24,000 nt of DNA from positions 1,436 through 25,435 of the forward strand of contig CAZTVK010000025.1 of NCBI GenBank assembly GCA_964617195.1, written 5' to 3'. The position numbers and the translations under genes are program-made. Source of the stretch: an uncultured Methanosarcinales archaeon. Lineage in GTDB: Archaea; Nanobdellota; Nanobdellia; Woesearchaeales; ARS49. This document shows, in pieces, positions 8,718-23,936 of the stretch (positions within the stretch are counted from its first letter, which is position 1; every line of letters begins with the position of its first letter). The notes under the pieces were generated by a model that worked only from the letters and a program-made list of their open reading frames with translations, did not search any database and was not told where the DNA came from.

Positions 8718-8752
8718 CCGGTCTGGGAGGATGCTCCCACCGGAAATTTTTT
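8718..8752 (+). terminator. GC-rich hairpin followed by T6 (terminator-like or sRNA 3' end)
   Basis: CCGGT-ct-GGGAG-GATG-CTCCC-ACCGG is 10 bp with a 2-nt bulge and a tetraloop, followed by AAATTTTTT. It lies in the 197-nt spacer between tRNA-Arg and the GGDEF-like gene. Confidence 0.4.
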
Positions 8753-8816
8753 ATAACGGCGCCTTTCCACAAATTCCTGAAGACAAAATATTCTTTATCA
8801 CTCTTCAGTAGTCAAA

Positions 8817-10046
8817 ATGGAAAGCTTTATAAACAGTGGAAAGAGAAACAAATCAATGGCGCCAGAACCAAATGAACAAAAAATAGTCATCACGCTAGAC
8901 CAGCTGCTTCTGGGCGTAAGAGAGAAAATCGGAGAGATAAAAGACGGGCTCATTCGAGCAGTCTCAGAAAAAGCATCACGAGGAACCACTGACTTCGGAG
9001 GAAAGGACGCATTTTTGGTAAGAGGATACTTTCCTGCGGATTACCTGCTAAACTCATCAAGCTACGTTCTTAAAACTCTCGAAGATGCAAGACATGATCC
9101 GTTGATAGAGGGACATGATAATTCTGAACTTCGAGGAAAAATAATGCGCCAAATCGAAGAAATAGCAAGAGACGTTTTTACGATACCTAAAGACATGACT
9201 TGGTCTGGCCTAGTTGATTTGAGCGAAAAATCCAGACGCCTCTACAAGGAAATGCTGCCAATAGTTGAGGAAAGCAGGCAGATCGATCACAGAACAGGCC
9301 TCAAAATATCTGACTATCTAACGAACTACTTATTCGAAAGCCTCAAACAATACCTCTCTCAACCCAACAAACACATCTCGATAGTATATCTTGATATGAA
9401 CAACTTCAAACTCTACAACGACATAGTAAAATCACACCAGGCAGACGTTGCAATCCAGCAAACAGCAGCACTCCTGAAGCAACTTCCAGAAGACGTTGTT
9501 GTAACAAGAAAAAACGACAAGAGAGGAGACGAATTCATGCTATTCATGCACAAAGATTATGACGGAGCAAGCAGAATCATGCATAAATTGTTTATTCCAC
9601 AATTTGACGAAAAACTTCCAGCCATGATCACGGCAGCAATGGAAAATAGTACGCAAAAATACGACGCCAACTTTGACAAGATGGGAGGAAAACTATCATT
9701 TGCAATAGGAATAAGTTCAACCTTGCTGCAGGACGGAACAACAATATTTGCAAGAGCAAGAAAAAGATTCGGGCAAACAGACGAAGAACTTTCAAGAGAA
9801 CTAGATTACTTCAATTCATGCGAGTCAGAAAAATGGCATGATAAATATGATAGTTTAAGTCCGGAAGTAAGAAAAAAAATACTCACGGCGCTCAAAGGAA
9901 CCTTGCAAGATGAAGCGGAAGCTGCGGCGCACTGGGCAAAAAACCTGTCAAAAGATAGGCATGAAAAAGAATTCTATGAAAAAACGGTTCTGCGGGCATA
10001 TGATCCAAAACTACCAGAATCAACTTATATTTACGTAGGACGATAA
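8817..10046 (+). CDS. GGDEF-like nucleotide cyclase domain protein with unknown N-terminal domain
   Basis: DHRTGL (DxLTGL), IVYLDMNNFKLYND (DxDxFKxxND), KSHQAD (in place of GHxxGD), KRGDEFMLFM (GGDEF position reads RGDEF), LSFAIGIS, and AEAAAHWAKNLSKDR (AD.ALY.AK..GRN). All are in the canonical order. Confidence 0.8.
   Translation: MESFINSGKRNKSMAPEPNEQKIVITLDQLLLGVREKIGEIKDGLIRAVSEKASRGTTDFGGKDAFLVRGYFPADYLLNSSSYVLKTLEDARHDPLIEGHDNSELRGKIMRQIEEIARDVFTIPKDMTWSGLVDLSEKSRRLYKEMLPIVEESRQIDHRTGLKISDYLTNYLFESLKQYLSQPNKHISIVYLDMNNFKLYNDIVKSHQADVAIQQTAALLKQLPEDVVVTRKNDKRGDEFMLFMHKDYDGASRIMHKLFIPQFDEKLPAMITAAMENSTQKYDANFDKMGGKLSFAIGISSTLLQDGTTIFARARKRFGQTDEELSRELDYFNSCESEKWHDKYDSLSPEVRKKILTALKGTLQDEAEAAAHWAKNLSKDRHEKEFYEKTVLRAYDPKLPESTYIYVGR
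9285..9971 (+). other. GGDEF-like (palm) domain within the 409-aa protein
   Basis: Covers about aa 157-385. The motifs listed for the CDS are all present. An insertion of about 60 aa lies between the SxGIS strand and the C-terminal A.AK helix. Confidence 0.65.
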
Positions 10047-10462
10047 GCTTTTTTGCGAAGATTCACTTGTTTTGTCTCTTCAGCTTCCATTGAAATCCTA
10101 ATTCCTGCTACTGACTTCTCGTGATCGAAAACATACGTGTTACCGTCAGAATGCTTGAACACAGTTTCCTTGAAATTTACAAGCAAACCTGCTGCTTTTT
10201 CTCTGGATGGCTTCTTTAAATCAAGCGTAAGACAATGATAAGACACACCATCTTTAGTAATGATGTCAGCACCAATCAGCTGGCCGCTAGTCACGTCCAG
10301 CGCACGGTTCTGAACATAAACTTCAGGATGATGAAGATATTGTGAACTTGCAAAATCCTCTTTCAATTTTTTAAGAGCGATCAGAATATGTAACGGGTCC
10401 TGTAAGCGTTCGGCTTCGTCCAACGTAGCCTTTATCTCATCAACCAAATCACGCTCTGGCAT
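10031..10462 (-). CDS. hypothetical protein (143 aa)
   Basis: ATG-initiated ORF 26 nt downstream of, and co-oriented with, the helicase fragment. Its 3' end overlaps the convergent GGDEF-like gene by 16 nt. No motif recognised. Confidence 0.6.
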   Translation of the reverse strand: MPERDLVDEIKATLDEAERLQDPLHILIALKKLKEDFASSQYLHHPEVYVQNRALDVTSGQLIGADIITKDGVSYHCLTLDLKKPSREKAAGLLVNFKETVFKHSDGNTYVFDHEKSVAGIRISMEAEETKQVNLRKKAYRPT

Positions 10463-10488: not shown

Positions 10489-11949
10489 TTAAAGGTTTCC
10501 TTCACCAACCTGCACTTTCACAGATTTGGCAACAGCAGCGCCAAGAAGCTCTGCCAATTTTTCAACAGATGCTTTCCTGATATCGCCCAAATCCTTGATT
10601 CCAGCACGGAACATTTTTCTTGCTCTCACACGTCCAATGCCTTCCAGCCTGATCAATGGCAAAAGCTCCTCTTTCACACCATACTTCAACCGTAACCTAA
10701 CTTTCATAATCTCTTTCAACAAATCCTGATACTGCATCAAACGAGCAAGCTCATGACAGCCATACAACAGCCAATCCGCATTATCGATTTTCGCCCTCGA
10801 CTCACCAGGCCTGCTATCATAACGTTCCAAAAGCCACTCTTCATCCTTCTCATCAATCCAATCCTCAAGCATCAATGCTGTTTTCAAACTGTCAAGCCAA
10901 TCCTCATACTCATGCTCAAACATGCTCGGCTCATGCTCCAGCAAATACGACTCTAACAACGCGTACTTCTGCTGGATCTCATCATACTCCTTCTGCTTCA
11001 CTCTAAGCAATGGGCGCATCTCCAACGTATTAGAAACCGCGTGCAAGAATGAAATGGACTTCAACTTGGTATGCGTCGCGCGCTCCAACCTGCCCAACAA
11101 ATTATGAGCAGTCAACGGGTCAAGATAAAGCTCAGCAACTCTCTTTCCTATGAGAGTTGCACGATAACCTTCCTGCACTTCCTGCAAGAAACCCCACTCG
11201 ACCAACAATTTCAACATTTTATCAATCACGCGCGACATCCTTTCAAGATCCTTATATTGATGCGCCCAAAAAGTCCGGCTGAAAAAATCAAGAATAGACT
11301 CATTAGAAGAAATAACACGGGAAGAAATCAAAGAAAGCAGATAAGTGCGAAGCACAGGCTCAACAGCCAACTTGCTGTAAATATCCTCAGGAACACCTTT
11401 CAAATAATGCTCAACAATGTATTCCTTATCAGACTCTGTCTGAGCAAGCACAATAGCCTCGCCAAACGTGTCATATTTAGGACGGCCAGCCCTTCCAGCC
11501 ATCTGCAAGAATTCAAGCACAGGAATATGCGCCATGCCATGCATGCCAAACCGTTTCACATCACGAATTATAGCGCGAAAAGCAGGCAAATCAACACCAG
11601 CTGCCAAAGTCGGAGTGCAACAAATAATTTTTACAACACCAGCGCGAAAAGCATCCTCAACCAACTCCTTTTGCTTTGAATGCAAGCCAGCATGATGAAA
11701 CGCAATGCCTTTCTTGACGCATAAAGCCAAACGCTCGCACTGCTTTGTAGGTTTTGAAAGAGCAGAACGAACACTCTCAGACAACTTGTCAAGCTCAGCA
11801 CTCTTCAACTCAGTCTTTTTGCTGATGTCCTCAGCAACTTTTTCAGCAGAACGCTTCGCGTTAACGAACACCAAAGCCTGCTTTTTGATTTCAATAGTAT
11901 CAAGCGCGACATTAATGACAGGATCACTCGTTTTTTCAGCTATTTTCAT
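10489..11949 (-). CDS. hel308: Hel308/Ski2-like helicase, C-terminal portion only (RecA2 + winged helix + ratchet + HhH)
   Basis: Helicase motifs IV-VI are present: ALVFVNAKR, CCTPTLAAGVDLPA, QMAGRAGRP. A Sec63/ratchet-like region and a C-terminal helix-hairpin-helix (LEGIGRVRARKMFRAGI) follow. There is no Walker A or DEAH, and the ORF begins where RecA2 starts. Confidence 0.88.
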   Translation of the reverse strand: MKIAEKTSDPVINVALDTIEIKKQALVFVNAKRSAEKVAEDISKKTELKSAELDKLSESVRSALSKPTKQCERLALCVKKGIAFHHAGLHSKQKELVEDAFRAGVVKIICCTPTLAAGVDLPAFRAIIRDVKRFGMHGMAHIPVLEFLQMAGRAGRPKYDTFGEAIVLAQTESDKEYIVEHYLKGVPEDIYSKLAVEPVLRTYLLSLISSRVISSNESILDFFSRTFWAHQYKDLERMSRVIDKMLKLLVEWGFLQEVQEGYRATLIGKRVAELYLDPLTAHNLLGRLERATHTKLKSISFLHAVSNTLEMRPLLRVKQKEYDEIQQKYALLESYLLEHEPSMFEHEYEDWLDSLKTALMLEDWIDEKDEEWLLERYDSRPGESRAKIDNADWLLYGCHELARLMQYQDLLKEIMKVRLRLKYGVKEELLPLIRLEGIGRVRARKMFRAGIKDLGDIRKASVEKLAELLGAAVAKSVKVQVGEGNL

Positions 11950-22798: not shown

Positions 22799-23902
22799 AT
22801 GTTAGTTCATAAGGCTTATCGGAAATTTTCAAAAGAACAAAAGTTAGTTCTCCTGACAAAAGAATACAACTTATCGGAGAAAGAAATTCTACGTATCAGA
22901 TCAATAGAAAATCCGAAGAAGAGGCTACTAGAAGCAGCCAAACTTCAATTTGAATGTTTGGGCGATATACACAATGATATTACGGCGTGGATTGCAGGTT
23001 ATTCCCAAGAAACATCAGTTAGGAGCGTTTTCGGAACGGCATTGGAATTAAGAAAGAATTTTGTCAAACTTCCAGAGAACATATCTTCATATTCCTGGAT
23101 GGATATAAAACGAAGAGTGAAAATTCCAACATGGTCGGAAGATTTAGCTGAAGAAACAGGAGTTCATTTAGGAGACGGATCGCTTCAAATAAACAAGTAT
23201 GGAAAATGGCAGAACTATGCGTACACGATCGATGGTCACTTAATCGACGACATGGCCTACTATGATTTCCACGTAATTCCATTAATTCAAAGATTGTACA
23301 ATCTTACTCCTAGAAAAAGAATCAATAAGGATCGTAATTCCTGTCAACTAGTAATAAAATCAAAAGCCGTTAGCATCTTCAAAAAGGAAATTCTAAAATT
23401 ACCCGTGGGAAATAAAATAGGTGCTAAAATCCCTAAGGAAATAATTGAAGATGATGTTTTTTCTAAAAAGTTTGTATGCGGGATGATCGATACTGATTTC
23501 ACAGTTACCAAAGATTTGCAAATTAGAGGCAGTTTAGTAAGTTTGAATGTAATTAAGGGAATGTCAGAGATTCTTGATAAACTGAATATGAATCATTATA
23601 TTCGAATAAAAGACGGTGTGGGCTACATAGTCATAAACAAGCCAGCATCGATCGAGCTACTGGAAGAAATTAAAAATCCTAAACATACTTCGAAATATCT
23701 TCTCTGGCAACGTTTTCATAAATACATTCCGTTTACATCAACAGTTGAACGATTGGCGGTTCTTGAAAACATTGTGCCTTTCGAAGATCTACTGAGATTG
23801 AGCGAAAAAAGAAAAAAAGCCCAGGCAAGCGCCCGGGCCTACGCCCCCGGTGAGAATTTCGGTGCTTTTAAAGCACACTCGAACTCACGACCTACTGATT
23901 AA
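22799..23902 (+). CDS. free-standing double-motif LAGLIDADG homing-endonuclease-like protein
   Basis: Two LAGLIDADG-type motifs about 100 aa apart: LAEETGVHLGDGSLQINKYG and KKFVCGMIDTDFTVTKD. An N-terminal extension of about 120 aa precedes them. The gene looks AT-richer and uses more T-ending codons than its neighbours. Its last 61 nt overlap tRNA-Asn on the opposite strand. Confidence 0.78.
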   Translation: MLVHKAYRKFSKEQKLVLLTKEYNLSEKEILRIRSIENPKKRLLEAAKLQFECLGDIHNDITAWIAGYSQETSVRSVFGTALELRKNFVKLPENISSYSWMDIKRRVKIPTWSEDLAEETGVHLGDGSLQINKYGKWQNYAYTIDGHLIDDMAYYDFHVIPLIQRLYNLTPRKRINKDRNSCQLVIKSKAVSIFKKEILKLPVGNKIGAKIPKEIIEDDVFSKKFVCGMIDTDFTVTKDLQIRGSLVSLNVIKGMSEILDKLNMNHYIRIKDGVGYIVINKPASIELLEEIKNPKHTSKYLLWQRFHKYIPFTSTVERLAVLENIVPFEDLLRLSEKRKKAQASARAYAPGENFGAFKAHSNSRPTD

Positions 23903-23936
23903 CAGTCAGTCGCTCTACCGGCTGAGCTACGGGGGC
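23842..23936 (-). tRNA. tRNA-Asn (anticodon GTT) with a 22-nt non-canonical insertion (intron) in the T-loop
   Basis: Minus strand reads GCCCCCG-TA-GCTC-AGCCGGTA-GAGC-G-ACTGA-CTGTTAA-TCAGT-AGGTC-GTGAG-[TTCGAGTGTGCTTTAAAAGCACCGAAATT]-CTCAC-CGGGGGC-G. Everything folds as a standard cloverleaf except that the T-loop is 29 nt instead of 7. Confidence 0.8.
23857..23878 (-). other. putative tRNA intron in the T-loop (boundaries +/- 2 nt)
   Basis: Removing about 22 nt (GTGTGCTTTAAAAGCACCGAAA or a register-shifted equivalent) restores a 7-nt T-loop, TTCGATT. The insert contains a GTGC-TTTAAAA-GCAC hairpin, and the flanking TTCG/CGAA can pair. Confidence 0.6.

Follow-up and report, generated by a model that had tools for sequence, protein, structure and literature searches.

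Can an archaeal protein that carries RGDEF in place of the GGDEF motif act as a diguanylate cyclase, and does it work alone? The question is raised by an open reading frame (ORF) at positions 8817-10046 (+; longest frame, 409 residues) of a 24,000-nucleotide stretch of DNA from an uncultured archaeon (GenBank assembly GCA_964617195.1, contig CAZTVK010000025.1, positions 1,436 to 25,435), hereafter the window. The original prediction, made by a model from the sequence, described this ORF as a GGDEF-like nucleotide cyclase with an altered active site. We found that its product is a genuine, highly diverged GGDEF-family protein, that the gene is native to the archaeal genome in which it lies, and that it belongs to a conserved two-gene module. 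The original prediction is confirmed as an observation and borne out in part as an interpretation. The second gene, at 10031..10462 on the reverse strand, was missed by it; the module, with this partner of unmatched fold, is the only truly new element of the locus.

We began with family membership. Pfam PF00990 matched residues 156-253 of the ORF protein with 33.0 bits, above the gathering cut-off of 23.8 (E 6.2e-8), while the NCBIfam GGDEF model TIGR00254 scored 28.6, under its cut-off of 37.4. A single-sequence search of the PDB gave marginal matches (E 0.06-0.2), every one of them a cyclase. A profile of 19 family members matched WspR at 6.5e-20 and PleD at 2e-16, with 47 GGDEF structures hit besides WspR. 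An AlphaFold2 (AF2) model, computed from an input alignment of six sequences, has four long N-terminal helices followed by the beta-alpha-alpha-beta-beta-alpha order of GGDEF domains plus extra helices. When this model was compared with the PDB using Foldseek, the best 49 matches were all GGDEF domains, including those of PleD, WspR, DgcR, DosC, and SiaD, and target-normalised TM-scores reached ~0.67 for isolated GGDEF domains. A Pfam score above cut-off, a family profile that hits WspR, and fold matches that are all GGDEF argue together that the resemblance is not due to chance.

The model and the alignments delimit the parts of the protein. Residues 27-153 (8895..9275, +) form an all-helical domain whose four long helices in the AF2 model end with one that enters the GGDEF domain. 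As the original prediction had remarked of the first 156 residues, this region resembles nothing recognizable: no Pfam family matched the N-terminal ~155 residues in any of the 19 members. The domain is probably a dimerisation or sensor stalk. We detected no hydrophobic segment in the protein, indicating that it is soluble. Pfam and the alignment to WspR place the first half of the palm domain at residues 156-253 (9282..9575, +). A family-specific helical insert at residues 302-348 (9720..9860, +) lies between the SxGIS strand and the last helix and holds an FxR motif (F311, R313). The last GGDEF helix, residues 349-379 (9861..9953, +), is the second stretch that aligned to WspR, and its EAEAAAHWAK aligns with ADxALYxAK. 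An insertion ahead of the last helix had been predicted and is present, but its size had been put at about 60 residues; it measures about 45, forms three helices at residues 310-346, and is accompanied by a second insert of about 20 residues after helix alpha-3. In a profile comparison with a canonical 457-residue DPANN GGDEF protein, the confident alignment was restricted to the GGDEF core.

We next examined whether the gene belongs to the archaeon at all. The host assembly (1.09 Mb in 26 contigs, scored 100% complete) is a member of DPANN (Nanoarchaeia), and the window is part of an 85.7-kb contig with a G+C of 0.43, like all large contigs of the assembly. The neighbours include FtsZ, an ATP-dependent DNA ligase, a Hel308-type helicase with the archaeal domain 4, and tRNA genes, bearing out the archaeal context of the original prediction. 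The order of the genes, running from the ligase to the GGDEF-like gene, a small ORF, the helicase, and an acyltransferase, recurs on independent NCBI, JGI, and Logan contigs of up to 160 kb, and one family member lies on an archaeal contig of 496 kb. All family members with readable context sit amid archaeal genes, among them those for A-type ATPase subunits, diphthamide synthase, and ATP-dependent ligase. The proposal that a bacterial gene was carried in on a mis-binned or chimeric contig could draw on eleven foreign-looking contigs of 1-2 kb in this assembly. It is nonetheless refuted, and we give it next to no probability: the GGDEF-like gene lies mid-way in its contig at the genome's own G+C, between an archaeal ligase and an archaeal Hel308, and the same gene order on independent contigs excludes mis-binning. 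The eleven small contigs themselves (C1, C7, C8, C9, C13, C16, C18, C21, C23, C24, and C26), with a G+C of 59-71% compared to 42-44% elsewhere, are probably contaminants of the bin.

Having placed the gene, we turned our attention to the active site. The ordered GGDEF hallmarks listed in the original prediction are all present, within residues 157-380. They comprise DHRTGL at residues 157-162; DMNNFKLYNDIVKSHQAD at residues 193-210 (9393..9446, +), in translation DMNNFKLYND-IVKSHQAD; RGDEF at residues 236-240 (nucleotides 9522-9536), with G237, D238, E239, and F240 in place; AIGISS at residues 296-301; and AAHWAKNLSKD at residues 370-380. R236 stands where the first glycine of GGDEF would be, as had been predicted. 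It lies in an active-site hairpin, R231-KND-K-R236-G-D-E-F (9507..9536, +), in which R231 aligns with the conserved arginine of RxGG(D/E)EF. Eight residues are invariant across the 19 members (T160, D193, N201, R231, D238, E239, G298, and E366); D210 is kept in 16 of 19, K375 in 17, and Q208 in 18, and the FxR residues F311 and R313 are also near-invariant. From what is established for PleD and WspR, we take D193 to be the metal ligand on strand beta-1 and D238 and E239 to be the metal and catalytic pair of the motif, so that both the beta-1 aspartate and the acidic pair are present in 19 of 19 members. N201 (19/19) and D210 (16/19) are presumably the readers of the guanine base, counterparts of PleD N335 and D344, and the nine residues that separate them match the spacing in WspR. 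K375 aligns with the conserved lysine of the AK motif in WspR, which we assume to correspond to the phosphate-binding K442 of PleD. The motif itself, RGDEF, falls outside the (G/S/A)G(D/E)EF pattern of competent cyclases: the first position is A in five members, G in four, S in four, R in three, H in two, and D in one. The RxxD of a canonical I-site would stand five residues ahead of the motif, but the family consensus shows none where WspR has RSSD; the RKND of the GGDEF-like protein lies inside the hairpin, two residues ahead of RGDEF.

How large and how constrained is this family? Close homologues, 54-93% identical, numbered only five in a word-based search. When 1.84 billion cluster representatives were searched exhaustively with a profile, ~17 clusters matched over their full length (372-447 residues), below which lay only generic GGDEF matches at ~E 1e-7. 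With a family hidden Markov model (HMM) built on the 19 aligned members, no member scored below 339 bits and no other protein above 106 bits. PF00990 matched all 19, with a best E of 2.1e-24, and the distant members are only 22-30% identical to the window protein. Traits common to the whole family are the helical N-terminal domain, the second helix after alpha-3, the ~45-residue three-helix insert before the last helix, the near-invariant glutamine in GHxQAD, the near-invariant FxR, and the absence of RxxD at the I-site position. By these comparisons, the family is a small, discrete, and highly diverged archaeal branch of GGDEF proteins. It was monophyletic in a FastTree tree, which we used for monophyly and motif polarity only and in which the family node has a modest support of 0.765. 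In this tree the sister group of the RGDEF clade has AADEF or GADEF, and both groups are nested among (G/S/A/H)GDEF branches, indicating that the arginine and the lengthened hairpin are derived. The ratio of non-synonymous to synonymous substitution (dN/dS) of the GGDEF-like gene, measured against its 93%-identical orthologue, is 0.058, as low as that of the adjacent DNA ligase (0.060), indicating strong purifying selection. The residues that this selection preserves are the putative catalytic ones. Within the genus, 3 of 15 species have a family member, and a sample of 400 other genomes of the phylum contained none; since that sample yielded no further member, the distribution was read from metagenome contigs.

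The partner gene encodes a soluble alpha/beta protein of 143 residues and is convergent with the GGDEF-like gene, its 3' end overlapping the latter by 16 nucleotides. A homologous ORF of 123-143 residues lies directly downstream of the GGDEF-like gene in 11 of the 12 loci for which we had DNA; the partner is absent from one, the short contig L047. The two genes are convergent in 10 loci, with a gap of -21 to +4 nucleotides, and co-directional in L046, where the partner lies 45 nucleotides downstream. An HMM of the five close partners, searched against 6,787 ORFs, matched only the ORFs at the same position in three distant loci (1.3e-8 to 4.7e-5), with no other match up to an E of 10, and an eight-member HMM found three more homologues (1.6e-11 to 2.2e-6) among 9,226 ORFs. 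In four loci the helicase does not flank the pair and the two genes are still adjacent, indicating that the linkage of the partner is with the GGDEF-like gene rather than with the helicase. Furthermore, a profile search of 5.8 billion proteins returned only eight partner clusters, and all that could be placed lie on contigs that carry the GGDEF-like gene. Compared to the window, the GGDEF-like protein and its partner are 93% and 85% identical in L032, 79% and 80% in L008, ~53% and 44% in L011, 31% and 36% in L025, and 24% and 26% in L027. Over 55 pairs the pairwise identities of the two proteins correlate with r = 0.95, a value that shared descent alone could explain. Over long spans both diverge far beyond their surroundings: in a comparison in which the helicase keeps 87% identity, identity falls to 31% for the GGDEF-like protein and to 33% for the partner.

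The partner is predicted with confidence (pLDDT 83, pTM 0.78) to form two long N-terminal helices on a five-stranded sheet. It had no Pfam match, and searches of the PDB and BFVD with the model returned nothing below an E of 0.06. A PDC/Cache-like sensor fold was considered and, at a match probability of only ~0.1, set aside. Searches of the partner and of the N-terminal domain of the GGDEF-like protein against Pfam and NCBIfam gave sub-threshold noise only, such as HEPN at an E of 0.006 in one orthologue. Inspection of the partner by eye revealed none of the PilZ motifs RxxxR and (D/N)xSxxG.

What signalling background does the pair meet in its host? The genome has four further GGDEF genes, with the motifs GGEEF, GGEEF, GGDEF, and GGEEF, each accompanied by GHxxGD. 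The view taken in the original prediction, that GGDEF domains are rare or absent in characterised archaea, thus does not hold for this lineage: besides these canonical copies, 49 of 61 related genomes have a GGDEF match, and a paper of September 2026 reported diguanylate cyclase activity for archaeal GGDEF proteins, including several encoded in DPANN metagenome-assembled genomes (PMC13725321). Because such proteins are common in the lineage and their activity is published, an archaeal GGDEF is no longer exceptional, and the gene in the window represents a variant, specific to its lineage, of an enzyme family that is known and that is common there. The five GGDEF genes in 1.09 Mb contradict the preliminary impression in the same paper of single GGDEF copies per archaeal genome (PMC13725321). 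Domain searches for EAL, PilZ, and HD-GYP (HD_5), which the original prediction had called for, found none in the genome. Among the 61 related genomes HD_5 exceeded its cut-off in 21 and EAL in one, and PilZ was matched in two. The sole HD protein of the genome, of 793 residues with the motif HDSGHL...SH, looks by its motif like a deoxynucleoside triphosphatase-type HD protein rather than an HD-GYP. No DAC-type synthase of cyclic di-AMP (c-di-AMP) was found in this 100%-complete genome by a search that was positive in three control Euryarchaeota. An Rfam search for the c-di-GMP-I riboswitch gave no match in the genome and, as it gave none in the control genomes either, is uninformative. One of the canonical proteins, a GGEEF protein of 293 residues (G000:C4:33294-34175), has its own insert of ~45 residues ahead of the SIGV strand, and its gene lies 4 kb from that of the 793-residue HD protein (C4:37849-38103).

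We therefore weighed what the GGDEF-like protein could do. The reading we favor, and to which we give an even chance, is that it is an active, guanine-using cyclase that works with the partner. The N-terminal helices would hold two chains together, as the stalk or coiled-coil regions of known cyclases do, and each GGDEF domain would bind Mg-GTP. The dimer would make cyclic di-GMP (c-di-GMP) or a closely related compound that contains guanine, with no feedback by the product, and the co-inherited 143-residue protein would switch the enzyme on or off by binding or would be a local receptor of the product. A non-glycine first position is compatible with catalysis in some enzymes, as AGDEF (VCA0965) and SGDEF (ECA3270) proteins are active (PMC3974145). 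Several observations weigh against this reading. The PF00990 alignment spans only profile positions 3-98 of 161, and the quality of the AF2 model is only moderate (mean pLDDT 70.8). KND is a three-residue insert in the hairpin relative to most of the family, and the model is least confident in this hairpin, where pLDDT is <50 at residues 233-236. K198, the lysine of the FK pair, varies within the family, and the AADEF or GADEF of the sister clade implies that the whole sub-branch has a remodelled hairpin. Finally, the first motif position has been scanned systematically only in VCA0965, where A, G, H, and M were active and all other substitutions inactive, which places arginine among the inactive ones (PMC3974145). 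The authors of that scan stress that each cyclase follows its own rules (PMC3974145). Because the arginine and the lengthened hairpin arose within the family, activity in the RGDEF clade, judged from sequence, is probable but not assured.

The same features lend themselves to a second reading, which we regard as possible although doubtful: that the protein is a pseudo-enzyme that binds GTP or c-di-GMP without catalysis and, with its partner, serves as a sensor or scaffold for the c-di-GMP made by the four canonical cyclases. The arginine at a position where VCA0965 was active only with four other residues (PMC3974145), the poorly modelled hairpin insert, and the AADEF or GADEF sister clade all suit such a protein, and a genome that lacks PilZ, EAL, and HD-GYP in spite of its four canonical GGDEF genes needs receptors of another kind. 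The constraint on the family argues in the other direction, for the metal ligands are invariant across very divergent members. Known GGDEF domains of the receptor type, such as those of PelD, PopA, and FimX, have lost these ligands and bind through the RxxD I-site; here the ligands are kept and RxxD is absent at the canonical position. Moreover, the motif variants found in most branches of the family have proved compatible with catalysis in some cyclase (PMC3974145). The degenerate receptor raised as an option in the original prediction is thus kept alive by the arginine, and disfavored by the invariant ligands and the missing I-site.

An active cyclase with another product appears improbable. 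Its product would be a cyclic dinucleotide that is mixed or lacks guanine, or a linear molecule of the pppGpG type, much as Hypr GGDEF enzymes make cyclic GMP-AMP. In its favor, xSHQAD with the family-specific Q208 replaces GHxxGD, the hairpin beneath the second substrate is altered, and the genome lacks a DAC-type c-di-AMP synthase. However, the protein keeps N201 and D210, the pair that specifies guanine in enzymes of the PleD type. The Hypr signature, serine in place of the aspartate of GxxGD (PMC13725321), is absent, with N201 invariant and D210 an aspartate in 16 of 19 members, and the Hypr-like change of substrate suggested in the original prediction accordingly finds no counterpart at these positions.

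The position of the pair in the genome invites a further explanation. Its slot, between the ligase region and the helicase, is taken up in congeners by different signalling genes (L053 1841-3429; L054 3822-4910; L056 4140-5057). In G009 it is occupied by a canonical GGDEF protein of 361 residues (RLGGDEF), whose gene is convergent on an unrelated ORF of 151 residues, in G006 by a GGDEF protein of 363 residues, and in G013 by a Ser/Thr protein kinase. Because congeners hold a GGDEF or a Ser/Thr kinase there, the slot is a variable signalling position. A two-gene conflict or defence module, consisting of a cyclase and an effector in such a slot, would account for this variation, for the patchy spread of the family, and for a divergence of the pair far beyond that of its neighbours. 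We nevertheless consider the chance of it slim. At E up to 1 no PADLOC model matched either protein of the pair, the partner has no membrane segment and no nuclease, pore, TIR, or other effector domain, the short-term dN/dS is as low as in housekeeping genes, and the flanks carry no mobile-element genes. Two side observations concern congeners. The 151-residue ORF of G009 resembles a degenerate mini-GGDEF. In a congener, genes for a cyclodipeptide synthase (PF16715; L008 5031-5756, also L009 and L010) and a MarR/HTH protein lie directly upstream of the GGDEF-like gene, and a cyclodipeptide synthase in a DPANN genome seemed unexpected.

We also put forward, tentatively, a broader proposal that we hold to be rather unlikely: that the GGDEF-like protein and its obligate neighbour of 123-143 residues form a self-contained nucleotide-signalling module found only in DPANN archaea, in which the neighbour would be a new class of receptor for c-di-GMP or a related nucleotide, or of cyclase regulator. 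If true, the partner would fill the receptor or regulator role in a genome with several cyclases but no PilZ, EAL, or HD-GYP.

The 5' end of the GGDEF-like gene required a closer look at the start codon. The codon at the first ATG (8817) is ATA in L011, an orthologue that is ~53-54% identical, and ATG 8856 is kept in all four aligned loci, arguing for a start at the latter. Comparison of these loci thus points to M14 (8856..8858, +) as the probable start, which would give a protein of 396 residues; the proteins P0003 and P0004 were called as starting at the methionine that corresponds to M14. The annotated 5' end contains a TATA-like box, CTTTATAAAC (8825..8834, +), ~22-31 nucleotides ahead of ATG 8856. 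It is kept in the four orthologous loci save for one base in L011, and we infer that it is a putative promoter element. Further upstream, at 8727-8758, a GGGAG-GATG-CTCCC hairpin is followed by a stretch CACCGGA..TTTTTTATA that is invariant in the four loci, with flanks that differ in some. This region may terminate a transcript from upstream, either tRNA-Arg or a small RNA, or may serve as a second TATA box for the GGDEF-like gene.

Other observations concern the neighbouring genes. The Hel308-type helicase (10489-11949, -) comprises only the C-terminal half of such an enzyme (RecA2, winged helix, ratchet, and helix-hairpin-helix; 486 residues), and a half-length Hel308 was found in every orthologous locus seen. 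A separate frame of 225 residues on another contig (G000:C14:21987-22472) has a DEAD/RecA1 domain only (110 bits) and may be the missing half. In one congener (L011 6152-6805) an ORF of 217 residues with a faint LAGLIDADG match lies between the helicase and acyltransferase genes. A fourth tRNA in the window (23874-23936, -) was reported by Rfam (35 bits, 63 nucleotides) and is not in the ARAGORN output.

How does the locus compare with known systems? Its best matches in sequence and fold are cyclases of the PleD/WspR type (PF00990; PDB 2wb4, 3bre, 3i5b). The GGDEF-like protein has their palm fold and their DxxTGL turn, Dx(D/N)xFKxxND loop for metal and base, R-x-x-G-D-E-F hairpin, and SxG strand, and its last helix likewise carries A..AK. 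Unlike them, it has arginine for the first glycine, xSHQAD for GHxxGD, and a hairpin longer by three residues; it lacks the RxxD I-site that would lie five residues upstream, gains ~65 residues through two helical inserts, and begins with an unassigned helical domain instead of REC. VCA0965 (AGDEF) and ECA3270 (SGDEF) resemble it in having a non-glycine first position in an otherwise intact motif, and other branches of its family have A, S, G, or H there, as in active variants (PMC3974145). However, neither enzyme has the hairpin insert, and the arginine of the window clade is outside the residues that VCA0965 tolerates.

The archaeal GGDEF proteins of Sidorov et al. 2026 (PMC13725321) are mostly from DPANN, and some carry inserts or substitutions at the motif (RIFHPSGDEF, RYGGDKGDEF); the paper describes neither an RGDEF motif nor a conserved partner gene among them. 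The authors leave the function of such motif-deviating domains for future definition, and which receptors exist is likewise open (PMC13725321). The finding remains a branch of a well-known family whose presence in DPANN was already published (PMC13725321). It adds that some DPANN genomes are rich in GGDEF, with five genes in 1.09 Mb and no recognizable phosphodiesterase or PilZ, and it offers a small, soluble, two-protein test case for receptors and for deviating GGDEF motifs.

The two-protein arrangement itself can be set beside SiaD-SiaC (PDB 7e6g). The partner in the window has no sequence or fold similarity to any PDB chain, SiaC included, and the two genes are convergent whereas SiaD-SiaC form an operon. 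SiaD is nevertheless among both the fold and the HMM matches of the GGDEF-like protein, and the SiaD-SiaC system likewise combines a stalk-GGDEF cyclase with a small, separately encoded, soluble partner, which activates SiaD.

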